This document shows positions 6,155-63,802 of a stretch of DNA of 64,000 nucleotides, in pieces. The notes beneath the pieces were generated by a model. That model did not search any database and had not been told where the DNA came from. It worked only from the letters and a program-made list of their open reading frames with translations. A program made the translations under genes and the position numbers. The stretch lies in the sequence record LR597658. One strand, given 5' to 3'. Source of the stretch: Escherichia phage VpaE1_ev108. Each line of letters begins with the position of its first letter. Within the stretch, counting starts at the first letter, position 1.

Positions 6155-6230
6155 GTGGCCTTATCATAAACGGTAATGACCCATGCTGTGAACATGGTCT
6201 ATACGGGTTCAAATCCCGTAGGTCACCCCA
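6155..6230 (+). tRNA. tRNA-His (anticodon GTG)
   Basis: acceptor gtggcct/aggtcac, anticodon stem ccatg/catgg with loop ctgtgaa, T-arm acggg-ttcaaat-cccgt, CCA encoded. Confidence 0.75.
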
Positions 6231-6236
6231 ATTTAT

Positions 6237-6312
6237 AGTCCAAGTAGCTTATATGGTTAAAGCGCGTGTCTGAAAAACATGAGAAGAGGGTTCAAATCCC
6301 ACTGGACTACCA
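6237..6312 (+). tRNA. tRNA-Phe (anticodon GAA)
   Basis: D-arm gctt-atatggtta-aagc, anticodon stem cgtgt/acatg with loop ctgaaaa, T-loop ttcaaat; 1-2 nt register ambiguity at acceptor/T-stem junction. Confidence 0.65.
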
Positions 6313-6328
6313 ATTTCAAAGGTGCTTA

Positions 6329-7063
6329 ATGAAAGAGATGACAGAACAAGGTAAGGAGATTTTTAATCTCTTAAAAACCGGTAAAGGGTTCTCTAACCCA
6401 CTTATTACTGGTGCAGCAGTTCTCGGTGGAACCGTAGCTGCTTCTACATCACTTGTAAGCTCTATTAGTTCTGTAACAGACCCTACAATGAAGGAGAAAC
6501 TTGTTGCTGCTGGACTTACAACAGTCCTTCTAAACAGCTTTACAACAAGCCTTACAAGCACTACAGCAACTACTAAAACTCTGACAGACTACGGTCAAAA
6601 GTCTATTGATGAGTTTTCATCACGTATGCAGGTAGCAAAGGGGTATTCCAATGTTATGGGTGCAGCAGGAGAACAAGTTGGTTGTACACCATTCAGTGGT
6701 ATCATGGGTGTTGCTACAGAGTATGGTCAAAAAGCTATTGACATGATGAACAGTACACTAGATAGTGTTAATGGTGTGTTAAGTGACTTGCAAGATGCTA
6801 TTGATAAGGGTCTTGATACTGTTTCTGATTTAGCTAATCAGGCTGTTAGTAAGATTAATGAAGGTATTTCAAAGATTACAGCTTATGCAGATGAAGTTGT
6901 GCAGATGATTGAAGAAGAAGCTGCCCTTATTGCAGAGTACCTTAAAACGAATATCAATGGGTTCTTAGCAGGTATCTTACCAGACTGGTTTGATGATGCC
7001 TGTAAAACTGGTGTAATTGACACTATTGCAACACCAGAAATGAAGAGCGCATTACAGAAATAA
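6329..7063 (+). CDS. hypothetical protein (Thr/Ser-rich N-terminal region, coiled-coil C-terminal region)
   Basis: ORF track 6266..7063 begins at a GTG inside tRNA-Phe; first ATG after the tRNA with a weak RBS is 6329, giving 244 aa. Confidence 0.65.
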   Translation: MKEMTEQGKEIFNLLKTGKGFSNPLITGAAVLGGTVAASTSLVSSISSVTDPTMKEKLVAAGLTTVLLNSFTTSLTSTTATTKTLTDYGQKSIDEFSSRMQVAKGYSNVMGAAGEQVGCTPFSGIMGVATEYGQKAIDMMNSTLDSVNGVLSDLQDAIDKGLDTVSDLANQAVSKINEGISKITAYADEVVQMIEEEAALIAEYLKTNINGFLAGILPDWFDDACKTGVIDTIATPEMKSALQK

Positions 7064-7064
7064 T

Positions 7065-7157
7065 GGAAGATTAACCCTAAAAGGTAAGGGAGCAGTTTGC
7101 TAAACTGCCAGTAGCTGAGAAATCGGTGTACCAGTTCAAGTCTGGTATCTTCCTCCA
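7065..7157 (+). tRNA. tRNA-Ser (anticodon GCT), long variable arm
   Basis: 93 nt; perfect acceptor ggaagat/atcttcc, anticodon stem gcagt/actgc with loop ttgctaa, long variable arm, T-arm accag-ttcaagt-ctggt, CCA encoded. Confidence 0.8.
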
Positions 7158-7161
7158 ATTT

Positions 7162-7237
7162 GAATCCGTGACAGAAATGGCTATGTGCCTGTCTGCAAAA
7201 CAGGTTTATAAGGGTTCGAGTCCCTTCGGATTCTCCA
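7162..7237 (+). tRNA. tRNA-Cys (anticodon GCA)
   Basis: perfect acceptor gaatccg/cggattc, anticodon stem cctgt/acagg with loop ctgcaaa, T-arm aaggg-ttcgagt-ccctt, CCA encoded. Confidence 0.8.
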
Positions 7238-7274
7238 AGTTATTTTACTCTCTCTCAATTAAAATAATAATAAT

Positions 7275-7334
7275 GCCCTGCTATAAGTATTCTTCCTTTC
7301 GCTACCGAAGAGTATTTTTAGACAGGGCTTTTTT
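7275..7334 (+). terminator. long hairpin plus T-tract; likely terminator at end of tRNA array
   Basis: gccctg ... cagggc stem with internal imperfect hairpin, followed by tttttt. Confidence 0.55.
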
Positions 7335-7399
7335 ACAGAGTTATACTTTATAAGAAGGCTTATACAGTATGTCTCTGACGTACATTGTGGTTTCTCCTT

Positions 7400-7423
7400 G
7401 ACGGTCTCTGTGCCGTCTTTTTT
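7400..7423 (+). terminator. rho-independent terminator
   Basis: gacgg-tctctgtg-ccgtc followed by tttttt; immediately upstream of the RBS of 7460..7660. Confidence 0.65.
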
Positions 7424-7459
7424 AAGGAGAAACATGGTTAATTATTTGGAGAAAACATA

Positions 7460-18939: not shown

Positions 18940-26958
<8,019 letters not shown>

Positions 26959-35046: not shown

Positions 35047-35066
35047 GAGCCTCCGAAGAGGCTGCC
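35040..35066 (-). terminator. rho-independent terminator for 35075..35515
   Basis: minus strand gcagcctc-ttcg-gaggctcc followed by ttttt. Confidence 0.65.
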
Positions 35067-35074
35067 TAGTCAAC

Positions 35075-35515
35075 TTAGAAAGGTTTTCTACGTTGCTTGT
35101 TAATGTTAGCTTTCATAGCAGCTAAATGGTTTTGCTGTTCAATCAGTCGTGAACGTTCTTGATGACTAAGTGCCATAGTGTTCACATTCTCAATTGCTTG
35201 AGTGGCTTGCTTTAAAGCACGACCAATCTTACCAGACATTTTGCGTTTTGCAATAGTTGCTTGATGCTTAGGTTCAACCAAACGATAACCAACACCCATT
35301 GAAGCAACCAGATAAATCTTCTCTTCTTTAAGAAGTTTCTCAATAAACTTCTCAAGTCGGTTTAGACGTGTAAGTGCATAAGCCTTCATTTCATCTTCGT
35401 ACTTAACAATGTCACCTTGATAAGTTGGCTTCACAATACCTAAGAAGGTGTCCATCTCGGAATGTGATACAGTGTCACCGTAACTAAACTTTGCTGCTAA
35501 TGCTTTTGTATTCAT
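35075..35515 (-). CDS. hypothetical protein
   Basis: 146-aa ORF; basic C-terminus. Confidence 0.65.
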   Translation of the reverse strand: MNTKALAAKFSYGDTVSHSEMDTFLGIVKPTYQGDIVKYEDEMKAYALTRLNRLEKFIEKLLKEEKIYLVASMGVGYRLVEPKHQATIAKRKMSGKIGRALKQATQAIENVNTMALSHQERSRLIEQQNHLAAMKANINKQRRKPF

Positions 35516-35517
35516 AA

Positions 35518-36123
<606 letters not shown>

Positions 36124-36202
36124 TTAGTTGATTGTTAAGTTGTTTGTAAAGAACCCTCAACAGAAGACTCTTTAGAAACTTGGTAGATTTTTAACGTGGC
36201 TA

Positions 36203-36270
36203 CTACCATCCACCCATACTTTACCTAACCAAGCCGAACATCACACAACCAGACCGAGCCGCACCCCGCC
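36203..36270. repeat. phased pentanucleotide array (NNNCC)
   Basis: ttacc taacc aagcc gaaca tcaca caacc agacc gagcc gcacc ccgcc. Confidence 0.75.
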
Positions 36271-38854: not shown

Positions 38855-39370
38855 TCAACTTAGTTTTGCAAACTCTCCGTGGAGTTTAATAGCAGCTTCA
38901 CAGTAAGCTTTATGGGCTTCTTCTTCTGTTGTGTATGTTCCTATATGTATGGTCTTGCCATTATGGTTAATCTGGGCTATCCACTTACCAGACTTGCTTC
39001 TACTTGTGCCTTTTAAGTTTTTTGATGTTCTAGGTTGTCTCCTATTAGACATGTTCTGCTCTTTTGTGGCCTCTCTTAGATTGTCCCAAGCGTTATTCAA
39101 ACCATCTCCATCTTTGTGGTCAATGTGTTTATCAGGCCACTTACCTGTCATCCAGAACCAAGCAATTCGGTGATTGCCTGTCCTGTATCCTAAAATCTGT
39201 GTGTGCATATACACACCAGACCTTGTGCGCTTAATTGCTCCGGCTTGGCTTCCAATAACCACCCTACTACTATGTGGAGGTCTGCCAATCCATGTTAAGA
39301 CCCCTGTTTCGGGGTCATAATCTAACCAAGACTTTAACTGTTCATGTGTGAATCCACAATCTCTCATCAA
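38855..39370 (-). CDS. HNH homing endonuclease
   Basis: 171 aa; HIDHKDGDGLNNAWDNLREATKEQN; paralogous to 61126..61617; sits immediately after the polymerase gene. Confidence 0.75.
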   Translation of the reverse strand: MMRDCGFTHEQLKSWLDYDPETGVLTWIGRPPHSSRVVIGSQAGAIKRTRSGVYMHTQILGYRTGNHRIAWFWMTGKWPDKHIDHKDGDGLNNAWDNLREATKEQNMSNRRQPRTSKNLKGTSRSKSGKWIAQINHNGKTIHIGTYTTEEEAHKAYCEAAIKLHGEFAKLS

Positions 39371-47946: not shown

Positions 47947-48987
47947 ATGGAGAAGTACACATTAACAAAACTTCCCGATTCAGTTACACATGTTTTTATT
48001 GACTCTGACAGTATTGCCTATAAAGGTGCTTGTGTAGTTGAGAAAGCAAAATATAAATACGTCAATAAACTCACAGCAGAAGAATCTGAGCCATTTGATA
48101 ATGCGAAAGATGCTGCAAGATGGTTAGCAGACCAGAGAATCCTTGTGGAAGAGCTTGGCCTGACATTTGATGAAGATGAATGGGAAAGACAGACTTGGAA
48201 AGAAGCTAAGAGTGAAAAAGAAGCTATCATGGCTACTCAACAGGTTCTTCAGGAATGGCTTAAGGTGGTTGGTAAAGAGAGAACTTGGGTAGGTTATTTA
48301 ACAGAGAAAGGTGTACATAAACATAAAGACATTAAAGGTCTTGAGCACCAATATCAAGGTAACCGTAAAGATGCTGTCACACCAACGCACTTAGTTGCTT
48401 GTCGTGAGTATCTTCTGTCAAGACCAGAGTTCAAACTCTTAAGGGGAGGCTTCGAAGCCGATTCAATCGTAATTGCTAAAGCTGAAAAGATGGGTAAGAA
48501 AGCTGCTCTTATGAGTATTGACAAAGACCTTCGACAAGCTGAAGGGACTTATTGTATTGATATGACTTATGAAAAATCACCACTAATTTTTATTGCTGAC
48601 AATAATGTTGGTGATATCTGGGATTGTCCTATCAAATCAAAACCAAAAGCTGCAAAAACAGTTGGTGTAGGTTTTAAATTCTTGTGTTATCAGGCTGTTG
48701 CTGGAGATAATGCAGACAACTACTTCGGCCTAAAAGGTGCTGGTAAAGTAGCTGTGATGAATGCTTTAGAGGGTAAAGAGACCTACAAAGAGTGTCTTGA
48801 TGCTATCTATGAACTTTATGCTAAAAAAGACTCTTATACCTATGTGTCATGGGATGGACAGACTATTACAAAGACACCATTAGAGTTAATGGAACAGCAT
48901 TTTTTCCTAGCTTATCAAGAGAGAAATCCAAAAGATAATTTCTCTTTTAAGAAATATAATTGGGAGCCGTGTATGAATGAAGATTAA
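47947..48987 (+). CDS. 5'-3' exonuclease / RNase H (FEN family, T4 RNase H-like)
   Basis: 346 aa; motifs HVFIDSDSIAY, FEADSIVIAKAEKMGKK, AALMSIDKDLRQ in T4 RNase H order. Confidence 0.6.
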   Translation: MEKYTLTKLPDSVTHVFIDSDSIAYKGACVVEKAKYKYVNKLTAEESEPFDNAKDAARWLADQRILVEELGLTFDEDEWERQTWKEAKSEKEAIMATQQVLQEWLKVVGKERTWVGYLTEKGVHKHKDIKGLEHQYQGNRKDAVTPTHLVACREYLLSRPEFKLLRGGFEADSIVIAKAEKMGKKAALMSIDKDLRQAEGTYCIDMTYEKSPLIFIADNNVGDIWDCPIKSKPKAAKTVGVGFKFLCYQAVAGDNADNYFGLKGAGKVAVMNALEGKETYKECLDAIYELYAKKDSYTYVSWDGQTITKTPLELMEQHFFLAYQERNPKDNFSFKKYNWEPCMNED

Positions 48988-49474
48988 AGGATTTGGCAAT
49001 TGCCCTACCTATGGTCATTGGGTATCTTTATGCGGGGAAGTTGACCCCACTAAACATTTTGGTTTTGTCTATTTAGTACACTGTAAGAAAACCGGACAAT
49101 ATTATATAGGAAAGAAACAGTTTAATAGCGTGACAAAAAGAAAAGTTGCTGGGAAGACTCGTAAGAAGGTAGTCACTAAGGAAAGTGATTGGATGACTTA
49201 CGAGACTTCTTCTGAGTATATCAAAAAAGATATTGAAAGCTTTGGAAAAGAATCTTTTGACTTTTATATTATTCAAACCTACTACACAAAAGGTGGCCTA
49301 GTCTATGGTGAAGCAAACCTTCAACATAAATTCGATGTAATGACAAAAAGGATTGACTCGAAGCTCAGACTCTTCTACAATGCCAATATCGCAGCAATTA
49401 AGTTTATTACTAAAGAAACTTATGAAGATGCTGAAAAAAGAATCCATAAGGTAATGAAAGCAAACTGTGCTTGA
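48977..49474 (+). CDS. GIY-YIG domain endonuclease-like protein
   Basis: 165 aa; N-terminal FGFVYLVHCKKTGQYYIGKK (GIY-YIG-like). Confidence 0.55.
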   Translation: MKIKGFGNCPTYGHWVSLCGEVDPTKHFGFVYLVHCKKTGQYYIGKKQFNSVTKRKVAGKTRKKVVTKESDWMTYETSSEYIKKDIESFGKESFDFYIIQTYYTKGGLVYGEANLQHKFDVMTKRIDSKLRLFYNANIAAIKFITKETYEDAEKRIHKVMKANCA

Positions 49475-49480
49475 TAACTA

Positions 49481-49744
49481 TTGAGAGAGAATAAAATGTT
49501 TAACAAAAGCAAAGCTGTGAGTCATGTAGCAAAAGTTGACAGCAAGATTGAAGAACTTGAGCGCATTCTTGCAAATGCTAGAGAATCAATAATTAAAGAA
49601 GTTGAAGCTGTTGAATCACAAATGCAGCACCTAATGCTTAAACGCCAAGAGCTACGTGAGCATCTAGAATATATTGAAACACGAGAGCTAAAGGTTAACA
49701 GATATTTTAAGGAGTCCAAATGTTTAACTCAAGAGAATCAGTAA
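49481..49744 (+). CDS. hypothetical coiled-coil protein
   Basis: 87-aa ORF. Confidence 0.5.
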   Translation: MRENKMFNKSKAVSHVAKVDSKIEELERILANARESIIKEVEAVESQMQHLMLKRQELREHLEYIETRELKVNRYFKESKCLTQENQ

Positions 49745-50475
49745 AAAACTGGAATCTTCGTTGTGGAAAAACTCAAAAACAACCTTACAGTAATGAGTAT
49801 TGGGAATCTTTGAAATCTCAATCTCTGTGTATGCTTGAAGAAGCAAAAGAGCTTGTAAAAGCAATTGAAGAGAAAGACCCCATTGAGACACTGGATGCTC
49901 AGGCAGATTTACAATATGTTCTTGACGGTTTGATTTACCTGTCACAACATGACCATAACGGTGCTATGGAAGCTGTTTGCCATAATAATGACCTGAAGTA
50001 CACAGATGACTATGAAGAAGCTTTAAAACGTCTTGCAGACATTGAAAAGCGTACTGGTCAAGAGTGTGTTATCAGAATGTCAGTAGTTGATGGTAAAGAG
50101 TGGTATGCGATTGTCCGTGCAGCCGATGGGAAGATTATGAAGCAATCAAATCTCCCTAAAGTACAGCTTGGTGAATACATTGTAGAACTTGAAAGCCAAG
50201 AACTTTTTGTGGTAGTATCTGAGACATGCGTTATCTGCAAAGGTATTGTAGGTAGCTTAAAGGATTTGGGTGTAGATGGTTTTGTAGAAGTTAATCCAAT
50301 TACCTCTAAAGCAGATAAAGATTTCTGTAAAGAGAATGGACTATGGATTGCAGATATTATCTACTATGATGGTGAGCAGTTCCATGTAACCTCATACCCG
50401 AAACTGAATTATGATGCTAATAACCTGAAGTGTTGGTTAAAAGGGGTTGGTTATAATGGATTCACAGAACATTAA
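49720..50475 (+). CDS. hypothetical protein
   Basis: 251-aa ORF. Confidence 0.6.
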   Translation: MFNSRESVKNWNLRCGKTQKQPYSNEYWESLKSQSLCMLEEAKELVKAIEEKDPIETLDAQADLQYVLDGLIYLSQHDHNGAMEAVCHNNDLKYTDDYEEALKRLADIEKRTGQECVIRMSVVDGKEWYAIVRAADGKIMKQSNLPKVQLGEYIVELESQELFVVVSETCVICKGIVGSLKDLGVDGFVEVNPITSKADKDFCKENGLWIADIIYYDGEQFHVTSYPKLNYDANNLKCWLKGVGYNGFTEH

Positions 50476-55263: not shown

Positions 55264-57408
55264 ATGAACAAAGTACAGATTATTAAAAAGAATGGCTCAC
55301 TTGAAGAACCTGATATCAAAAAAGTTTTAGCAGCAGTAACTAAGTCAGCTAACAGGGTTGGATATAAAGAACTCCCACCAGATGTTACCCAAGCTCTTGA
55401 GTCAGCATTTATGAGGATTCTGGTAAAGTCCACTAAGCAGAATAATTTACTCATCTCAGTCAATGATATTCACAGCATTGTTGAGGGTGCTTTGGCAGAA
55501 GTCAATCACGAGATTTATGAGTCTTACTCAACATATAGAAATTACCGGAAAGAGGTTGCTCAAAATTGGGATGAGCTTTACCAAAAGACTAGAGACACGC
55601 TCTTCTTAGGTGACCGTGAAAACGCTAACTTTGACAGCAGTTTAATTTCTACAAAAGGTTCAATTATTCGTGGTTACCTGACTAAAGAAATCTTTAAGCA
55701 GTACCATTTAACACCAGAGGAACTTGAAGCCATTGAAAAAGGGTTTATCTATATCCACGATTTAAGAGACCTGATTTTTGGCGGCATTAACTGTTGCTTG
55801 TTTGACATTGGTAAAGTACTGAAAGGTGGCTTTGAGATGTCTGGCATCGAATACTGTGAACCGAAGTCTGTGCTGTCAGCCTTACAGGTTATTGGTGATG
55901 TAGTTCTTTCAGCAACTGCACAGCAATTTGGTGGTTTTACTTTAGCAGAGATTGATAAGGTACTCATACCGTATGCTAAGAAGTCTCTACGCTATCATGC
56001 TGAGAAAGCAGCATCTTATGGTATTCCTAAAGAACATTACCACAATTATGTCATGGAGCAGCTACAGATTGAACTGACTCAAGGTTTCCAGTCACTTGAA
56101 ATGAAACTAAACACTGTACCTTGTAGTCGTGGGGATTTTGCATTTACAACTTTAACATTTGGGTTGCTCGACTCAGATATGTCTAATGAAGACAACCGAC
56201 TACAATACATGATTGCAAGTACTCTCCTAGATGTCCGTATGAATGGACAAGGTAAGAGCAAGAAGCCTGTTGTATTCCCTAAACTGGTTTATATTTATGA
56301 CCAGAAGAGACATAATGAGAATATCTGTCAAGGCCACCTGTACAGTAAAGCTATAGAGTGTTGCTCTAAAGCGATGTATCCAGATTTCTTAAGTGTATCT
56401 GGTCATGGTGCTGTAGCAGAGGCTTTTGAGCGTTCTGGCAAGGTTATTTCGCCGATGGGTTGCCGAGCGTTCTTATCTCCGTATCTTAACGAGAATGGGG
56501 AAGAGTTCTACGTTGGTCGTGCTAACATTGGTGCTGTATCTTTGAACTTACCAATGATTTACCAGTATTCTAAAGAGAATGGTTTAGATTTCTGGAAAGA
56601 GCTTGATAAGTACCTAGAGATGATTCGCAGCTTCCACAAGAAACGCTACGAAATGATTGCTAATATGCCAGCAAGTTCTAACCCTCTTGCATTCACACAA
56701 GGTGGTCTGTACAAAGGGACTAAGAAACCTACTGACAAGGTTGGTTGGGATATCGTGAAGTCCTTCACAGCTTCTTTTGGGGTTACTGCTCTTGATGAAC
56801 TGTCTGTTCTTGCTGAAGGTAAACGACTTCATGAAGTTGGAAGATATAGTTTTGCATACGATGTTCTGGAATACATCAACATGAAAACTGAAGAGTTTAA
56901 GAACGAAGATGGCTTCTTGTATGCGGTATATGGTACTCCAGCAGAATCACTTTGTGGAACTCAGTTAAAACAGTTCAGAGATATGTTTGGCGTTATTAAA
57001 GGTGTCTCTGACAAGGAATACTTTACAAACAGTTTCCATATGAATGTTGCAGCAGACATCTCACCATTTGAGAAGCAGGACTTAGAAGAGCCATTCTTCC
57101 ATATCTGTAGAGGTGGCAGAATCCAGTATGTAAGGGTAGCTAACCCAGAAAACTTAACAGCACTTAAAAGTTGTATTACCAGAGGGATGTTGAAGGGTTT
57201 TTATCAGGGACTTAACTTTGACTTAGCAATCTGTGAACATTGTGGTAACAGACCAAAGGCTGATGTTGAAGAATGTGAGGTTTGCCATTCACATGATATC
57301 TCTGTGATTAACAGGGTGTGCGGGTATCTTGGGTGGACCAAGATTAAAGGTGAATCCCGAATGAACGATGCAAAAATCGCTGAGATTCGTGATAGAGTCT
57401 CTATGTAA
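55264..57408 (+). CDS. nrdD: anaerobic ribonucleoside-triphosphate reductase (class III)
   Basis: 714 aa; N-terminal ATP-cone-like; C-terminal Cys cluster CEHCGN ... CEVC and glycyl-radical-like VINRVCGYLGW. Confidence 0.8.
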   Translation: MNKVQIIKKNGSLEEPDIKKVLAAVTKSANRVGYKELPPDVTQALESAFMRILVKSTKQNNLLISVNDIHSIVEGALAEVNHEIYESYSTYRNYRKEVAQNWDELYQKTRDTLFLGDRENANFDSSLISTKGSIIRGYLTKEIFKQYHLTPEELEAIEKGFIYIHDLRDLIFGGINCCLFDIGKVLKGGFEMSGIEYCEPKSVLSALQVIGDVVLSATAQQFGGFTLAEIDKVLIPYAKKSLRYHAEKAASYGIPKEHYHNYVMEQLQIELTQGFQSLEMKLNTVPCSRGDFAFTTLTFGLLDSDMSNEDNRLQYMIASTLLDVRMNGQGKSKKPVVFPKLVYIYDQKRHNENICQGHLYSKAIECCSKAMYPDFLSVSGHGAVAEAFERSGKVISPMGCRAFLSPYLNENGEEFYVGRANIGAVSLNLPMIYQYSKENGLDFWKELDKYLEMIRSFHKKRYEMIANMPASSNPLAFTQGGLYKGTKKPTDKVGWDIVKSFTASFGVTALDELSVLAEGKRLHEVGRYSFAYDVLEYINMKTEEFKNEDGFLYAVYGTPAESLCGTQLKQFRDMFGVIKGVSDKEYFTNSFHMNVAADISPFEKQDLEEPFFHICRGGRIQYVRVANPENLTALKSCITRGMLKGFYQGLNFDLAICEHCGNRPKADVEECEVCHSHDISVINRVCGYLGWTKIKGESRMNDAKIAEIRDRVSM

Positions 57409-59065: not shown

Positions 59066-59386
59066 ATGAGCAAAGTTTATAACACTCGTAAATTACAGAT
59101 TTTCGTACTGTGCCAGTTTATGGCTAAAGAATACAACTTCTACTATTGTGGTACAGGTTTTATTAGCGATGATGATGGCTCGTACCTCCCATTCAAAGAG
59201 GCTGTAAAACTCTTCAATGAAGAGAAAAGTTCTAAGAAAGATATTGAAAAGGTTAAGCTAACCTACAGCAAGAAAGATAAGAAGATTATCTGCCTAGATA
59301 ACTTTGTGAAAGTTACTGGAGAAGCAAAAGAGTTTATGGATGAGAGTGAGATTTCATTCACAAGCATCTTGAAAGTAGCTCAGTAA
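59066..59386 (+). CDS. hypothetical protein
   Basis: 106-aa ORF. Confidence 0.55.
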   Translation: MSKVYNTRKLQIFVLCQFMAKEYNFYYCGTGFISDDDGSYLPFKEAVKLFNEEKSSKKDIEKVKLTYSKKDKKIICLDNFVKVTGEAKEFMDESEISFTSILKVAQ

Positions 59387-59396
59387 ACAGATACTA

Positions 59397-59424
59397 TAAG
59401 GGGACTGTAAAGGTTCCCTTTTTA
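59397..59424 (+). terminator. rho-independent terminator
   Basis: ggggac-tgtaaag-gttccc followed by tttttatttt. Confidence 0.6.
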
Positions 59425-59437
59425 TTTTGGAGGTAAA

Positions 59438-59953
59438 ATGTATCTGTCAAACCTGAAACGTTCGGTTGCAATGTCAGTTCTAAGACTCAGCTTTGATGAG
59501 CGTCAAGAGTTTATAGACTCCCACAAATATGACCCTTCAAATTCTAATCACATGGTTCTTTGGAATCGTGATAACTTCCGTGAAAGAGCACTTGTCCGTT
59601 ATTACCCACACTACACAATAGATAACCTGTATGAATGGTGTGTTGTGAAGAACACCATTGCAACACTGAACAATCTTTGCAGGTATACGGGTAAGCAAAC
59701 ATTTACATTAGGTCATCACAAACCTGTTACAAAAGGTGGTGAACATCACTGTGCAAACTGGTTTATCCAAACTAAAGCTGATAACCAGAAGCAAGGAAAT
59801 AACCTTCTAAGCACCCCTAAGATGACCTATGAAGAGCAAGAGAAATATATCAAAAATAATATGCCAGATGTGCTTGACAACAACTATACAGATTTGGCAA
59901 TATCTCTCCTGTTGAAGTTCGAGACAGTTTATAGGGCAACTTATAATGGCTAA
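59438..59953 (+). CDS. HNH endonuclease-like protein
   Basis: 171 aa; FTLGHHKPVTKGGEHHCANWFIQTKADNQKQGN. Confidence 0.55.
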   Translation: MYLSNLKRSVAMSVLRLSFDERQEFIDSHKYDPSNSNHMVLWNRDNFRERALVRYYPHYTIDNLYEWCVVKNTIATLNNLCRYTGKQTFTLGHHKPVTKGGEHHCANWFIQTKADNQKQGNNLLSTPKMTYEEQEKYIKNNMPDVLDNNYTDLAISLLLKFETVYRATYNG

Positions 59954-60224
59954 AGAAAAGTGGGAGATTTTATCATTAGTTAGCGAAGGTGGTAATGGTT
60001 GTGAGATGTACATGATACGAGGTCATGTTCCAGAACCAATTGCACTTGAGATGGTAAACAATTTTACAGATGGTTCATACAAAGATTTAGGAGAACCAAC
60101 TGTCAAGCAACAATGGGTAAAGCCTGTACCAGACAGCACAGGCAACTGTAGTGTGCTTTATCACGTTGTAGACCCTGCAAAATGCAAATCTGCAATGGCA
60201 GTAACAAACGTAACTTTTGATTGA
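59946..60224 (+). CDS. hypothetical protein
   Basis: 92-aa ORF. Confidence 0.5.
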   Translation: MAKEKWEILSLVSEGGNGCEMYMIRGHVPEPIALEMVNNFTDGSYKDLGEPTVKQQWVKPVPDSTGNCSVLYHVVDPAKCKSAMAVTNVTFD

Positions 60225-60235
60225 GAGAGAAAACT

Positions 60236-61117
60236 ATGAAAACATCTATCCGTGTTACAGTTCATTCACCCACTAAAGGGACTCACGAAGAAGAGTTTAA
60301 CATCATCCAATTCCCTTCTGGTGAGATTGGTGGCCACTTTTCACAAGAGCTTGTTGATTTTACTGCTTATGCAGCATCATCTATTAACAATGTGGTTATG
60401 ATTGTAAAGGGTTATGACAAAGACACACTGTTTGCTGTGGCACTGGCTAAAGAAGCAATTGACGATTTAGTTCCTCATGATTATGCCCTGAAGACTGTCA
60501 TTTTTTACTACTTGCCAAATGCACGATACGACCGTCACATGTTTAAAGGCGACGCAGCAGCTTTAAAGGTTTTTGCTAAACAGGTAAATGCAATGGGATT
60601 TGGTGCAGTCTGTGCAGTTGACCCTCACAGTTATGTACCAGATAACCTGTTTAACTGCTTCCAAAGTATTCCTCAAAAGGAGATTGCAGTCCACTATGCA
60701 AATGACCCTCTAATTGATTACTTAGTAGCCCCAGATGCAGGTGCTTCTAAGAAGATTGCAGAGACTGCTAAAGAGGTGGATAAACCATATATCACAATGT
60801 CTAAGGTGCGTAACCTTAAGACTGGTGAAATTACTGGTATGCGAATCCTTGACGATGTTGATTTGACAGATAAAACTGTCATGATTCTGGATGATATTTG
60901 TGATGGAGGTCGAACCTTCATAGAAGCAGCCAAACATCTTCGTGAAGCAGGTGCAAAACGTGTGGAACTCTATGTAACTCATGGTATTTTCTCTAAAGAT
61001 GTTGAAAACTTGCTTGACAATGGTATTGACCATATCTACACTACAAACTCTTTAGGGGAAGCTAAAGACCGTGGCTTAACACATTATAGCCAAGTTACTG
61101 TAGCAAACCTTGATTAG
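60236..61117 (+). CDS. ribose-phosphate pyrophosphokinase family protein (Prs-like; candidate ADP-ribose pyrophosphokinase of a NAD+ reconstitution pathway)
   Basis: 293 aa from ATG 60236 (track start 60221 is TTG); PRPP-binding-loop-like VMILDDICDGGRTF. Confidence 0.7.
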   Translation: MKTSIRVTVHSPTKGTHEEEFNIIQFPSGEIGGHFSQELVDFTAYAASSINNVVMIVKGYDKDTLFAVALAKEAIDDLVPHDYALKTVIFYYLPNARYDRHMFKGDAAALKVFAKQVNAMGFGAVCAVDPHSYVPDNLFNCFQSIPQKEIAVHYANDPLIDYLVAPDAGASKKIAETAKEVDKPYITMSKVRNLKTGEITGMRILDDVDLTDKTVMILDDICDGGRTFIEAAKHLREAGAKRVELYVTHGIFSKDVENLLDNGIDHIYTTNSLGEAKDRGLTHYSQVTVANLD

Positions 61118-61125
61118 GTAACAGT

Positions 61126-61617
61126 ATGAATAAGGGTTATTTTGAAAGATACCTAATATATGAACCAGATACAGGTTTATTAATTTGGAGAGTAACCCTT
61201 TGCAGTACCGCTATTGCTGGTAATGTGGCTGGCACAAGGTCTAAGAAGGGTTATATCCAAGTCCAGATAAATAAGAAGAGGTACTATGCACATAATATCG
61301 CATGGATTATGTCTGGAGGTGAGATACCAAGTGGATATGAGATAGACCACATAGACCTTGATAAATCCAATAATAAGTTGGAGAATTTAAGACTTAGCAC
61401 AAAGTCACAAAATCAGAGGAATAGGGGTATATACAAGAATAATAAAACTGGTGTGAAGGGTGTAAGTTTTTGTAAACAAACAGGTCTTTACAAAGCAAGA
61501 GTCATGCTTTACCATAAAGAATACTTTTGTGGAAGATTTAAAACGGTAGAAGAAGCAAAAGAAGCTGTAATTAAAAAGCGAATAGAACTTCATGGTGAGT
61601 TTGCAAGACATAACTAA
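61126..61617 (+). CDS. HNH homing endonuclease inserted between the Prs-like and NAMPT-like genes
   Basis: 163 aa; HNIAWIMSGGEIPSGYEIDHIDLDKSNNKLENLRLSTKSQN; paralog of 38855..39370. Confidence 0.75.
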   Translation: MNKGYFERYLIYEPDTGLLIWRVTLCSTAIAGNVAGTRSKKGYIQVQINKKRYYAHNIAWIMSGGEIPSGYEIDHIDLDKSNNKLENLRLSTKSQNQRNRGIYKNNKTGVKGVSFCKQTGLYKARVMLYHKEYFCGRFKTVEEAKEAVIKKRIELHGEFARHN

Positions 61618-61631
61618 GAGAGAGATAAAAT

Positions 61632-63413
61632 ATGAGTAAGTCACTTTACGCAGTACCAGCAGGTCTTAATGCAGATGCTTACAAGGCATCACATATATAT
61701 CAGTATCCAGATGCTACGCAATATCTTATGTTGAACCTGACACCACGTAGTGCTAAATGGTTTAACAGCCCTTTAGCAATTGACGGTGTAGTAGCTTTTG
61801 GTATTCAACGTTTTGTTAAAGATTACTTGATAGACCACTGGAACGCCACTTTCTTTGAACGTGATAAAAAAGAAGCCGTTGACGAAATCTTAGAAGTCAT
61901 GAATGGCGTTCTAGGTAAAGATGCTATCGGTCGAGAGCATTGGGAAGCACTTCACGACTTAGGTTATCTACCAGTTGAAGTATACGCTGTAGAAGAAGGC
62001 ACAGTTGTCCCTATGCGTGTCCCAATGATTGTCTTCCAGAACACTGTTTCAGGTTTCCATTGGGTAGCAGGTTATCTGGAAGATGCTTTCTCTGCTGAGA
62101 TTTGGAAGGCTTGTACCATTGCAACTATTGCATTGCACTACAAACGTATCTGTAAGAAGTGGGCTGACCTTACTTGTGACAACGACTTGCATTTGCCTTA
62201 TCAGTGCCATGACTTTGCTATGCGTGGTATGTCCGGCTTTACTGATGACGCATTTAACGCTGTAGGCCACTTAACCAGCTTTAAAGGAACTGATAGCTTC
62301 CCTGCTGTGTATACGGCTAAACGAATCTATGGACAGTCCTACCCAATCTCTGATATTGGTAGCTCTGTACCAGCCACTGAGCACTCTGTAATGTGTGCAA
62401 ACATTGCTTGGGAAGGTGGTAATGAGTTGATTGAAGAAGAAAGACGCTTTAAAGGTGAGTTACAAACCTTCCGTCGTTTCTTAACAGAAACTTACCCAAC
62501 GGGTATTGCAAGTATTGTTTCAGATACTTATAACTTCTGGAGAACTGTGTCAGAAATCTTACCAGCACTCCGTAAAGAAATTATGGAACGTGACGGTAAG
62601 CTGGTAATTCGCCCTGACTCTGGAGACCCTGTACATATTGTCACAGGTTACAAAGCAATCCACTTAGAGTGTGCTAAAAAGGCTTATTACGAGCACCTAA
62701 GCAAGCTAGAGGCAAGTGATACAATGCTGAACTCTGTCCTGAACATGAAGCTTGAAAACATTAACTATGGTATTGCTGGATGGCTACTGTCAGAAGGCTA
62801 CGAAATGGTTGTTGACAGAGAAGACTTTGAAGTTGCTGATACGGTGATGTTGAAGAATGCTTATATGGTTGGTTCTGCAAACGTTGTAACACGTCCTGTA
62901 GCTGAGATTGATGGGGCTATTAAGACACTGTATAACATCTTTGGAGGAACTATCAACTCTAAAGGTTTTAAAGTACTGGATGAGCATATCGGGCTTATTT
63001 ATGGCGACTCTATCACGTTGGAACGTGCAAACGAAATACTGAAGCGTTTGTATGAAATGGGTTTTGCAAGCTCTAACGTAGTGTTTGGTGTAGGTTCTTA
63101 CACTTACCAGTACATGACTCGTGACACCTTTGCATTTGCTGTCAAAGCAACTCTTGCAAGCATTGGTGGTAAAGAGATTATGCTTGCAAAAGACCCTAAA
63201 ACAGATAGTGGTGTTAAGAAGTCTGCTTTTGGTGGTGTAGCACCTATGTGGGATGGTGAAAATCTGAAAGCTGTAGATGGCTATGGGTTCCAGAGCTTTG
63301 CAGATGCACTTGAACACCCAGCTTGTGCTTTGCGTCTAGTCTTTAGCGACTCTGAGCAGTTCGGTTACACAACTCTTGGTGATATTCGAAATAATATTGA
63401 CAAGCAGCTTTAA
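61632..63413 (+). CDS. nicotinamide phosphoribosyltransferase family protein (NadV/NAMPT-like; candidate nicotinamide ADP-ribose transferase)
   Basis: 593 aa; NAMPT/NAPRT-family size and composition; assignment from sequence recall, not a search. Confidence 0.65.
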   Translation: MSKSLYAVPAGLNADAYKASHIYQYPDATQYLMLNLTPRSAKWFNSPLAIDGVVAFGIQRFVKDYLIDHWNATFFERDKKEAVDEILEVMNGVLGKDAIGREHWEALHDLGYLPVEVYAVEEGTVVPMRVPMIVFQNTVSGFHWVAGYLEDAFSAEIWKACTIATIALHYKRICKKWADLTCDNDLHLPYQCHDFAMRGMSGFTDDAFNAVGHLTSFKGTDSFPAVYTAKRIYGQSYPISDIGSSVPATEHSVMCANIAWEGGNELIEEERRFKGELQTFRRFLTETYPTGIASIVSDTYNFWRTVSEILPALRKEIMERDGKLVIRPDSGDPVHIVTGYKAIHLECAKKAYYEHLSKLEASDTMLNSVLNMKLENINYGIAGWLLSEGYEMVVDREDFEVADTVMLKNAYMVGSANVVTRPVAEIDGAIKTLYNIFGGTINSKGFKVLDEHIGLIYGDSITLERANEILKRLYEMGFASSNVVFGVGSYTYQYMTRDTFAFAVKATLASIGGKEIMLAKDPKTDSGVKKSAFGGVAPMWDGENLKAVDGYGFQSFADALEHPACALRLVFSDSEQFGYTTLGDIRNNIDKQL

Positions 63414-63426
63414 AAGTATATGATAA

Positions 63427-63450
63427 GAGGCTCCTACGGGAGCCTTTTTA
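63427..63450 (+). terminator. rho-independent terminator
   Basis: gaggctcc-tacg-ggagcctt followed by ttttta. Confidence 0.7.
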
Positions 63451-63466: not shown

Positions 63467-63802
63467 ATGAAAATCAAAGAGATGAACATTAACGTTGTCC
63501 TAGAAGAACGTTGGGAAAACATTAAGAAACCTGAAAATGGTCATAAATTCCTTAACAAAATTTTAGTAGCAGCTAAAGAAGAACTAACGGGTAAGGTTGC
63601 AGCAGCAATCACAATAAAGGTTTGTGTAAAGGGTCTTTCAGACAATCACCAATTTGCACTTGACGAGTTTAAAGAAAGCTTCTACAATCCAAACAAACAG
63701 ATGCTTGAAAGTAACTTTGCAGTATCTACAAGTATCGTCCATGACAGAAGCTTTATCCTTTACAAGAATATGAGAGGTGAGTCATGCAAGCATATTGGAT
63801 AG
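63467..63802 (+). CDS. hypothetical protein
   Basis: 111-aa ORF. Confidence 0.6.
   Translation: MKIKEMNINVVLEERWENIKKPENGHKFLNKILVAAKEELTGKVAAAITIKVCVKGLSDNHQFALDEFKESFYNPNKQMLESNFAVSTSIVHDRSFILYKNMRGESCKHIG

Follow-up and report, generated by a model that had tools for sequence, protein, structure and literature searches.

A Felixounavirus locus that very probably encodes the NARP1 counter-defence pathway, with a putative HNH homing endonuclease gene between the two enzyme genes

Phage pathways that rebuild NAD+

Osterman et al. discovered NARP1, which consists of Adps and Namat, in genes 79-80 of coliphage Bas63 (bioRxiv 10.1101/2024.02.11.579819). When these genes were deleted, the phage became sensitive to SIR2-HerA, and ADPR-PP was seen only if genes 79-80 were combined with an active defence system. 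The rescue of NAD+ by Bas63 NARP1 was independent of the host's pncC or nadR. In the same study, purified Adps from the Bacillus phage SPbetaL1 used ADPR, and a Prs-type control reaction gave no product; for SPbetaL1 Namat, the substrates in the assay were ADPR-PP, PRPP, or a mixture of both. A Namat homologue was found near adps in 97% of the Adps clade, and no phage was found with both NARP1 and NARP2. SPbetaL1 Namat strongly prefers ADPR-PP over PRPP, and Namat keeps some activity for converting PRPP to NMN in vitro (PMC12774641).

Three other systems are relevant. NARP2 (Nampt/NadV and Nmnat/NatV, as in the Vibrio phage KVP40) also relies on a NAMPT-fold enzyme to rebuild NAD+ against NAD-depleting defences, but it takes a route through PRPP and NMN, needs Nmnat, and has no Adps. 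Two extended forms of NARP1 have a third gene within the operon: NARP1-AP (Adps, the Macro-domain phosphatase Adpp, and Namat; bioRxiv 10.64898/2026.01.28.702374) and NARP1 that contains RyDEP (bioRxiv 10.64898/2026.05.28.727677).

The locus is orthologous to Bas63 genes 79-80

We analysed a stretch of 64,000 nucleotides, which we will call the window. The window is collinear with Bas63 (JohannRWettstein, MZ501086.1) across all 64 kb, and it is an ordinary Felixounavirus. We found no exact match to the window in the database; the closest genomes are 96-97% identical. The features of the locus are:

59398..59420, + strand: hairpin followed by a T-run, terminator-like (pattern match from a consensus scan)
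59438..59953 (171 aa) and 59946..60224 (92 aa), + strand: two open reading frames between the upstream hairpin and adps
60236..61117, + strand: adps (Prs family), 882 nt, 293 aa, with the stop codon TAG at 61115-61117
61118..61617, + strand: HNH cassette, comprising an 8-nt leader and the 163-aa reading frame
61126..61617, + strand: HNH reading frame (HNH_3), 492 nt, 163 aa
61618..61631, + strand: namat RBS region, GAGAGAGATAAAAT, on the right side of the HNH insertion
61632..63413, + strand: namat (NAMPT family), 1782 nt, 593 aa
61636..61733, + strand: HNH-linked haplotype block of about 100 nt (namat nt 5-102)
63425..63448, + strand: hairpin followed by a T-run, terminator-like, directly after the namat stop and identical in Bas63

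The listing of open reading frames agrees with the first-pass annotation on the coordinates of the three genes, all on the + strand. It opens the Prs-like frame at TTG 60221. For adps we use ATG 60236, which is preceded by a Shine-Dalgarno-like run (GAGAGAGA) and agrees with the start annotated in Bas63. From the adps stop to the namat start is 514 nt, and the HNH reading frame is the only gene in between, with gaps of 8 nt to adps and 14 nt to namat.

The family assignments of all three predicted proteins are well above chance. The Prs-like protein matches Pribosyltran (1.8e-11) and Pribosyl_synth (4.2e-10) from Pfam, phrog_619 (6e-97), and TIGR01251 (122.6 bits). The middle protein matches HNH_3 (1.7e-19) and phrog_99 (2.9e-68), and the NAMPT-like protein matches NAPRTase (6.7e-35), NAMPT_N (4.5e-6), phrog_448 (1.6e-201), and NF006629 (471.6 bits).

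The lengths of adps and namat are exactly those of Bas63_0079 and Bas63_0080, and the flanking genes match as well. Genus, genomic position, neighbours, gene lengths, and downstream hairpin are all shared, and the locus is the positional orthologue of Bas63 genes 79-80, the operon where NARP1 was discovered. As in most of the Adps clade, namat is in the vicinity of adps. The window differs from Bas63 in three ways: Bas63 has a 45-nt adps-namat spacer with a GC hairpin, and the window has a 500-nt HNH cassette; the N-terminal part of adps belongs to another lineage; and an HNH-linked haplotype occupies the first ~100 nt of namat. The order adps then namat is also that of NARP1 from SPbetaL1 and from another Bacillus phage, FADO.

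Overall, we are confident that this is a NARP1 counter-defence operon of Felixounavirus with an HNH homing endonuclease gene between the enzyme genes. From the sequence alone, the first-pass annotation had proposed that a Prs-like and a NAMPT-like enzyme rebuild NAD+ from ADP-ribose. This is the published NARP1 mechanism, at a locus orthologous to the one where it was described, so the two-enzyme reading is correct but not new. By analogy to the published work on Bas63 (in vivo) and SPbetaL1 (in vitro), the window's genes would have the same enzyme activities and the same anti-defence phenotype. That is, defences such as SIR2-HerA, Thoeris, DSR1/2, SEFIR, and similar systems would split NAD+ into ADP-ribose and nicotinamide. 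Adps would move pyrophosphate from ATP to ADP-ribose, which yields ADPR-PP, and Namat would swap the pyrophosphate for nicotinamide to form NAD+, with no NMN intermediate and no NMNAT. The HNH gene would be outside the pathway, as an insertion in the adps-namat spacer that displaced a conserved hairpin and kept the namat RBS.

The operon appears to be intact despite the insertion

The hairpins at 59398..59420 and 63425..63448 probably mark the 5' and 3' ends, respectively, of the transcription unit to which NARP1 belongs. The GAGAGAGA element precedes namat in loci with and without the HNH gene alike. Because the insertion kept the RBS of namat, adps, the HNH gene, and namat are probably co-transcribed between the two hairpins. 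The two reading frames between the upstream hairpin and adps have counterparts in Bas63 (genes 77-78) and match phrog_3500 and phrog_4726, but neither has a match in Pfam. (The 171-aa frame also has a weak match to an HNH phrog.) These are candidate members of the pathway.

Where the window has the HNH cassette, relatives without the HNH gene have a spacer of about 30 nt that contains a hairpin. The hairpin's 6-bp GC stem is invariant in 11 of the 12 HNH-minus loci, which are from several lineages, and its z-score is -1.9. Since the stem is invariant, covariation does not argue for or against the hairpin. We also considered a canonical intrinsic terminator, which is not supported: just four T follow the stem, and our scan did not call it.

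The loss of this conserved stem could alter expression, and the two cistrons are now separated by an extra reading frame of 492 nt. The insertion might thus have crippled the operon, by a polar effect or by altered stoichiometry, and left NARP1 weakened or inactive. We think that this is very unlikely. The adps and namat reading frames are intact, namat retains its RBS, and the displaced hairpin fails the terminator rule that we applied. Also, 63 records and some more distant lineages have kept this arrangement, with adps and namat intact, which argues against a loss of function.

The Prs-like protein is probably Adps

The protein is 78% identical to Bas63_0079, without gaps (511 bits). With phmmer, it is more similar to SPbetaL1 Adps (87 bits) than to E. 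coli Prs (47 bits), and the reciprocal search agrees. In alignments, the overall identity is 28% to SPbetaL1 Adps versus 24% to E. coli Prs; across the SPbetaL1 and FADO proteins, the identity is 27-28%. For TIGR01251, which is a broad model, its score of 122.6 bits lies among those of validated Adps (96-139 bits) and far from that of E. coli Prs (423 bits). By synteny, phmmer, and TIGR01251, the predicted protein belongs to the phage Adps lineage and not to cellular Prs. (We rejected membership in phrog_619 as a way to tell Adps from Prs; E. coli Prs matches this family too, with 193 bits.)

Two loops are informative. In SPbetaL1 Adps, mutations identified K162 as the catalytic lysine of the flexible loop, equivalent to K197 of B. 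subtilis Prs (bioRxiv 10.1101/2024.02.11.579819). In the window this residue is K190: KVRNLKTGEI aligns with SPbetaL1's KQRNFHTGEI. The pattern K-x-R-N-x-x-T-G-E-I is common to the Adps of the window, SPbetaL1, and FADO, and is absent from E. coli Prs. The other loop is the PRPP loop. In Prs, this loop has the form D-D-x-x-D-T-[AG]-G-T and binds the 5-phosphate of ribose-5-phosphate. Instead of the DDMIDTGGT of E. coli Prs, the window has DDICDGGRT, so that DTGGT becomes DGGRT and the threonine is replaced. This threonine is also replaced in the Adps of SPbetaL1 (DDLSSFGGT) and FADO (DDLSSYGGT), and its replacement may well have structural consequences.

Namat has the clamp motif for ADPR-PP

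The NAMPT-like protein is 97% identical to Bas63_0080. In a search of the PDB, its best match is SPbetaL1 Namat (9w5w/9w5x, 434 bits), as compared to 180 bits for Xcc Nampt and about 145 bits for human NAMPT. At the 20 ligand-contact positions from the SPbetaL1 crystal structures, it has the same residue as Bas63 Namat in all 20 and as SPbetaL1 Namat in 16. The catalytic core, which is common to Nampt, is present: F195, D221, R327, and H251 (in ATEHSVM) correspond to F189, D215, R306, and the catalytic histidine of SPbetaL1 Namat.

The diagnostic clamp motif of Namat is GSX-Phi-X-Phi-X-Phi-TRD (PMC12774641). The window has G488-S-Y-T-Y-Q-Y-M-T-R-D498 (GSYTYQYMTRD) in the helix of this clamp, which confers selectivity for ADPR-PP. 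The third Phi is methionine, as in Bas63; asparagine or valine is more common. A second part of the clamp, a loop, provides the residue that stacks on adenine, which is either arginine or else follows a lysine or tyrosine (PMC12774641). Reading from the sequence, the window has K42-W43 (in TPRSAKWF) and Bas63 has TPRSDKWF, so both have lysine and an aromatic residue. SPbetaL1 and FADO share the clamp motif and the catalytic core of Namat, as well as the Adps loop with the catalytic lysine, but their clamp loop has arginine instead of Lys-Trp. Relative to the crystallised form of SPbetaL1 Namat, the window's protein has insertions of 15 amino acids (259-273) and 77 amino acids (351-427). The longer insertion has no Pfam domain, even at E = 10.

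A Nampt would prefer PRPP, lack the adenine clamp, and have Nmnat alongside. Here the clamp motif is present, the neighbouring gene encodes Adps, and Nmnat was not found, which also distinguishes the locus from NARP2.

Classical NAD+ salvage is highly unlikely

Could the locus encode classical salvage instead? The Prs-like protein would make PRPP, the NAMPT-like protein would make NMN, and the host's NadR or PncC/NadD would complete NAD+. The GenBank product names (ribose-phosphate pyrophosphokinase and nicotinamide phosphoribosyltransferase) imply as much, the Pfam and NCBIfam names concur, and the Prs-like protein narrowly clears the cut-off of 113 bits for TIGR01251. We consider this highly unlikely. 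The orthologous operon of Bas63 rescued NAD+ in a host without pncC and nadR and made ADPR-PP; the Prs-type reaction yielded nothing with SPbetaL1 Adps; and Namat has the clamp motif. The window's Adps is also far below the cut-offs of all of the Prs-specific models in NCBIfam other than TIGR01251. Its best scores are 104 bits for NF002095 (cut-off 296) and 91 bits for NF002320 (cut-off 297), and E. coli Prs scores 533 bits for NF002320. A true Prs, which would have overturned the first-pass reading, fits neither these scores nor the replaced threonine.

The other component that salvage might call for is an NMNAT. The first-pass annotation saw no NMN adenylyltransferase or Nudix partner in the window, and our Pfam scan of the 20 unassigned ORFs of at least 130 amino acids found no NMNAT/cytidylyltransferase-like or NUDIX domain in them either. 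The other large ORFs of the window are collinear with Bas63 genes. About 23 kb of this genome are outside the window. In the Bas63 reference genome, the annotation lists neither an NMNAT nor a Nudix enzyme, and a scan of 10 Bas63 proteins that are unassigned and encoded beyond the region of the window gave no NMNAT or Nudix domain.

The middle gene behaves like a homing element

The middle protein scores 69.6 bits for HNH_3, versus a gathering score of 24.8, and it has a weak match to AP2 (4.5e-4, under the gathering score). The gene has no counterpart in Bas63. About a quarter of relatives have it: 63 of ~258 phage records and 6 of 28 IMG/VR loci. Across the 28 loci, the insertion junctions are identical in every case, which corresponds to a single conserved site, with the gene always in the place of the spacer hairpin, and the reading frame is intact in 7 of 7 copies. 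The genomes of Felixounavirus are known to vary in their homing endonucleases (PMC8300805). A paralogue of the HNH protein (38% identity) is encoded beside the DNA polymerase gene.

From genus to genus, the HNH gene has diverged less than its flanks. It is 99.6% identical to its counterpart in phages whose whole locus is ~95.6% identical, and its nucleotide identity to two distant HNH-plus loci (L027 and L028) is 90%, against a background of 82-84%. The start of namat shows the same pattern. The haplotype block is 91-92% identical between the window and L027/L028, compared to 82-84% farther downstream. In an HNH-minus locus from the same genus (L011), the block is just 76% identical to the window, compared to 92% downstream. 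Nucleotides 1-105 of namat travel with the HNH gene, and the association of this 5' haplotype with the gene's presence is significant (P = 0.005, Fisher exact test).

The linkage of the HNH gene to this ~100-nt haplotype suggests co-conversion. The block is probably a tract of co-conversion, a group of polymorphisms that shield the target site, or both, and the endonuclease's target may lie in the 5' end of namat. The first-pass annotation had taken the HNH gene as a hint of mobile-element traffic, which the presence or absence of the gene at one site, its conservation above the flanks, and the linked haplotype bear out. We conclude that the middle gene probably encodes a free-standing homing endonuclease, a selfish element. 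In T4-like phages, free-standing homing endonucleases (seg and mob) undergo "intronless homing", in which flanking markers are co-converted. They are similar in that the endonuclease gene is intergenic, is present or absent at one site, has diverged less than the flanking sequence, and has a linked haplotype in the flank, with mosaic recombinants; unlike for seg and mob, the cleavage activity, homing, and target of the window's HNH protein are putative, as predicted from sequence.

It is extremely unlikely that the middle gene acts as a third working part in an extended form of NARP1: there are precedents within NARP1 operons (Adpp and the RyDEP glycosidase), and the reading frame is intact, tightly packed, and has more synonymous than non-synonymous differences, but its only domains are HNH_3 and the weak AP2 rather than Macro or RyR, it is missing from Bas63 (where NARP1 works) and from about three quarters of relatives, it has a paralogue elsewhere in the genome, and its conservation above the flanks and linked haplotype are how homing elements behave. 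Nor did we find a Macro or RyR gene nearby. NARP1-AP is defined by a Macro-domain gene (PF14519, PF01661, or PF20016) at most two genes from NARP1, and hmmscan, which is less sensitive than the HHpred of that study, had no Macro match with E ≤ 0.01 in five ORFs: the three just upstream of adps (starting at 59066, 59438, and 59946), the HNH gene, and the first ORF downstream (starting at 63467). A Pfam scan of the neighbouring ORFs did not find a RyR accessory gene. The Bas63 genome does encode a Macro-domain protein, about 15 genes away from NARP1.

Two old lineages of adps

Over the first 170 residues, Adps of the window and the validated protein of Bas63 have an identity of just 68%. Within Felixounavirus, the N-terminal half of Adps falls into two allelic lineages, with ~70% nucleotide and 68% amino acid identity between them against a background of 91-97%. 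Of the codon differences between the two types, 55 are non-synonymous and 52 are synonymous. The experimentally validated Adps of Bas63 is of the minority type, and the window's Adps is from the other lineage. The two lineages are old. The diverged allele is not linked to the HNH gene (the window's type is found with and without it), and neither type was imported from the neighbouring lineage (L027-L035), to which both are 72-78% identical.

The split might be due to a host factor that detects or inhibits Adps and imposes diversifying selection, or else the types might differ in the range of their substrates. We view this as unlikely, but if true, it would be an additional and undescribed layer in the NAD+ arms race. 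In a related vein, the homing endonuclease may move the adjoining namat allele between genera.

Implications

NARP1 lets phages reverse the depletion of NAD+, which is a very common strategy of bacterial immunity. The pathway is already published, and the window's instance adds no new biology to it: the operon and the genus are those in which NARP1 was discovered. The GenBank names for these proteins, in ~258 records from Ounavirinae, should be changed to Adps and Namat. Because the HNH gene interrupts NARP1 in about a quarter of genomes, searches for operons that require strict adjacency should allow for one intervening gene. The population signature of the HNH gene is a small addition to what is known about NARP1, and at this locus for counter-defence, the 5' haplotype of namat provides a natural case of what is probably homing with co-conversion.

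The NARP1 locus and its counterpart in Bas63

The adps-namat locus of Escherichia phage VpaE1_ev108 is the published NARP1 system, a two-enzyme pathway by which phages rebuild NAD+ (Adps plus Namat). It is already known, and it lies here in the genus of its discovery, Felixounavirus. The ORF listing, together with Pfam and PHROGs matches, bore out the three genes, the families and the positions given by the first-pass annotation, and all three ORFs have the same orientation.

Features of the NARP1 locus
59398-59420: hairpin plus T-run, 5' of the unit (a pattern match, not proof of a transcript end)
60236 (ATG)-61117 (stop), + strand: adps, Prs family, 293 aa
61126-61617, + strand: HNH endonuclease gene, 163 aa
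61632-63413, + strand: namat, NAMPT family, 593 aa
63425-63448: hairpin plus T-run, 3' of the unit (a pattern match, not proof of a transcript end)

The Pfam matches were to Prs/phosphoribosyltransferase for the adps product (1.8e-11), HNH_3 (1.7e-19), and NAPRTase/NAMPT for the namat product (6.7e-35); the corresponding PHROGs matches were at 6e-97, 2.9e-68, and 1.6e-201. A ribosome-binding element (GAGAGAGA) precedes the ATG of adps at 60236, and one of the same type lies upstream of namat. The two hairpins enclose adps, the HNH gene, and namat, preceded by two uncharacterised ORFs of 171 and 92 aa, and the downstream hairpin is identical in Escherichia phage JohannRWettstein (Bas63, MZ501086.1). 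The 171-aa ORF (59438-59953, + strand), two genes 5' of adps, has a weak PHROG match to HNH endonucleases (7.5e-7) and, as judged by eye, an HH...N...-type motif. It corresponds to Bas63 gene 77, and this conservation means that it is no presence/absence element.

The adps-HNH-namat locus matches 258 phage records, nearly all from Felixounavirus or other Ounavirinae, with hosts in Escherichia, Salmonella, Shigella, and Citrobacter; the top matches are 95-97% identical. The entire window is collinear with Bas63 (positions 1-7459 match Bas63 79639-87100, and positions 7460-64000 match Bas63 1-56391). Just five short stretches of the window have no counterpart there, and the HNH cassette (61114-61617) is exactly one of them. 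Adps and namat have the same lengths as Bas63_0079 and Bas63_0080 (882 and 1782 nt) and identical neighbors. The proteins align without gaps, with 228 of 293 residues identical for Adps (78%) and 575 of 593 for Namat (97%). Elsewhere, a 1.2-kb stretch at 35048-36268 (- strand) is absent from Bas63 and holds two ORFs (146 and 200 aa), neither of which has a Pfam match. The product of a 251-aa ORF at 49720-50475 (+ strand) matches the MazG-like PRA-PH (nucleotide pyrophosphohydrolase) domain at 26.7 bits (the gathering score is 21.3).

NARP1 was discovered with Bas63 genes 79-80 by Osterman et al. (bioRxiv 10.1101/2024.02.11.579819). In that study, Bas63 lacking both genes was sensitive to SIR2-HerA and NAD+ collapsed; host pncC and nadR were not needed for the rescue of NAD+ by Bas63; and ADPR-pyrophosphate (ADPR-PP) was seen only in the joint presence of both genes and the defence system. 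Purified Adps from the Bacillus phage SPbetaL1 converted ADPR and ATP to ADPR-PP, and purified SPbetaL1 Namat converted ADPR-PP and nicotinamide to NAD+ (bioRxiv 10.1101/2024.02.11.579819). The first-pass annotation had proposed that a Prs-like and a NAMPT-like enzyme would rebuild NAD+ in this way, and orthology with Bas63 indicates that it was right.

Adps and Namat as distinct from Prs and Nampt

We considered whether the genes might instead encode classical NAD salvage, with a genuine Prs and with an NMNAT encoded elsewhere. PHROG membership does not separate Prs from Adps. TIGR01251, a Prs model, gives 423 bits for E. coli Prs and 123 bits for the window's Adps; validated Adps proteins reach 139 (Bas63), 106 (SPbetaL1), and 97 bits (the Bacillus phage FADO). 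For all of the other, more specific Prs models, the window's Adps is far under the cut-off. As its match, phmmer ranks SPbetaL1 Adps (87 bits) above E. coli Prs (47 bits), in agreement with the reciprocal search. The loop around the catalytic lysine (K190 in the window), K-x-R-N-x-x-T-G-E-I, is common to Adps proteins and is not in E. coli Prs. Also, every Adps that we examined has another residue in place of the threonine of the Prs loop DTGGT (DGGRT in the window). These model scores and residues suggest that the protein is not a genuine Prs.

Namat is likewise closest to its NARP1 relatives. In a search of PDB, it scored 434 bits to the SPbetaL1 Namat structures 9w5w and 9w5x; the scores to Nampt from Xanthomonas and to mammalian NAMPT were 180 and about 145 bits. 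(The 9w5x sequence, taken from the alignment, is 100% identical to SPbetaL1.) These structures and the "selectivity clamp" for ADPR-PP were described in 2026 (PMC12774641). At the published ligand-contact positions, the window's Namat is the same as Bas63 Namat at 20 of 20 and the same as SPbetaL1 at 16 of 20 (the substitutions are R40K, S190A, A362S, and F392Y). The diagnostic helix motif is GSYTYQYMTRD, and the clamp loop has K42-W43, which agrees with the arrangement given for Bas63, a lysine plus the next residue (PMC12774641). Unlike the crystallised SPbetaL1 protein, Felixounavirus Namat has two extra insertions, neither of which has a Pfam match or is discussed in the structural paper (PMC12774641):

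62406-62450 (aa 259-273): 15-aa insertion, shared with Bas63
62682-62912 (aa 351-427): 77-aa insertion, shared with Bas63

As the first-pass annotation had noted, the window shows no NMNAT or Nudix partner: none of its 20 unassigned ORFs of at least 130 aa has such a domain. Neither do ten unassigned Bas63 proteins encoded beyond the window's region, and the Bas63 annotation lists none. No phage in the preprint's survey had both NARP1 and NARP2, the Nampt/NadV plus Nmnat/NatV pathway (bioRxiv 10.1101/2024.02.11.579819). Because the tests for Prs are negative, no NMNAT was found among these proteins, and no phage of that survey had both pathways, the two conditions that the first-pass annotation named as refuting its reading both fail.

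Bas63_0095, annotated as a "putative phosphatase", lies about 7 kb past the end of the window in the collinear genome (Bas63 63278-64063; 25279-26064 in the Bas63 stretch L003). It carries a Macro domain (PF01661; 32 bits, with a gathering score of 22) and weakly resembles OARD1/TARG1 and coronavirus macrodomains. It is conserved at full length in 257 records, which is roughly the set of Ounavirinae that carry NARP1. The published survey for a NARP1-associated ADPR-1''-P phosphatase (Adpp) searched no farther than two genes from NARP1 and would have missed an unlinked Adpp-like enzyme. Since the Macro domain is common in unrelated phages (2796 records), we view Bas63_0095 as a lead only.

The HNH gene between adps and namat

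The HNH product matches HNH_3 (69.6 bits) and, under threshold, AP2. Its DNA is in 63 phage records, versus about 258 with the locus, and the gene is present in 6 of 28 IMG/VR loci. In all loci that lack it, the adps-namat spacer contains a GC hairpin (GGGGCT-N4-AGCCCC, with a 6-bp stem; for example, L003:15629-15673), then ATTTT, and then the ribosome-binding site of namat. In all loci that have it, the adps stop is TAG, and the hairpin's exact place is taken by the 492-nt ORF with a leader of 8 nt, with the namat ribosome-binding site retained. In 11 of 12 loci, which span several Ounavirinae lineages, the displaced stem has the same sequence and the loop is variable; we found no covariation in the stem across the 12 loci. 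The hairpin does not satisfy the terminator rule, which leaves it without support as a canonical intrinsic terminator.

The cassette is more conserved than its flanks. It is 99.6% identical to phages whose full locus is about 95.6% identical, and about 90% identical in nucleotides (88-92% for amino acids) to the IMG/VR loci L027 and L028, whose Adps and Namat share only about 75% identity with the window's. Furthermore, all loci with the HNH gene, distant ones included, have a common haplotype at nucleotides 5-102 of namat. Across this segment, the window is 91-92% identical to L027 and L028 (82-84% downstream) and just 76% identical to the allele without HNH from its own genus (92% downstream). 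Three loci without the gene have mosaics of both haplotypes, the association of haplotype with HNH is significant (P = 0.005, Fisher exact test), and the ORF is unbroken in 7 of 7 copies, in which synonymous changes outnumber non-synonymous ones. Taken together, the distribution, insertion site, conservation relative to the flanks, linked haplotype, mosaics, association, and ORF integrity point, on sequence grounds, to a free-standing homing endonuclease, and they form the classical footprint of one that has probably co-converted its downstream flank. The displaced hairpin or the initial ~100 nt of namat probably holds its target site. Felixounavirus genomes are known to vary in their homing endonucleases (PMC8300805).

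Because accessory genes with Macro (Adpp) or RyR (RyDEP) domains occur inside other NARP1 operons, we also considered the HNH product as an accessory enzyme. We rejected this because of the domains that it contains, the population pattern, and the lack of the gene in the functional Bas63 operon.

The window has two further free-standing endonucleases: an HNH_3 plus AP2 protein encoded next to the gene for DNA polymerase (38855-39370, - strand), which is 38% identical to the HNH protein of the NARP1 locus, and a SegE-like GIY-YIG protein (48977-49474, + strand). Also, nrdD (55264-57408) is one unbroken ORF of 714 aa, while the Bas63 annotation joins it from two pieces and places a homing-endonuclease gene within the intervening sequence, which is a further mobile-element polymorphism between the two phages.

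Two alleles of adps

The 5' half of adps (60236-60745) falls into two deep allelic lineages within Felixounavirus, with 69-71% nucleotide identity and 68% amino acid identity between them; 55 of their codon differences are non-synonymous and 52 are synonymous. Unlike this half, the 3' half is 91-94% identical. Import from the lineage of IMG/VR loci L027-L035 does not explain the split, and we found no linkage of the split to the HNH gene. The simplest reading is relaxed constraint on the N-terminal domain of Adps. The minority type is that of Bas63, which is experimentally validated, and this split alone separates the window from the experimental evidence. Along with the co-conversion signature of the HNH gene, it is a minor addition to what was known of NARP1.
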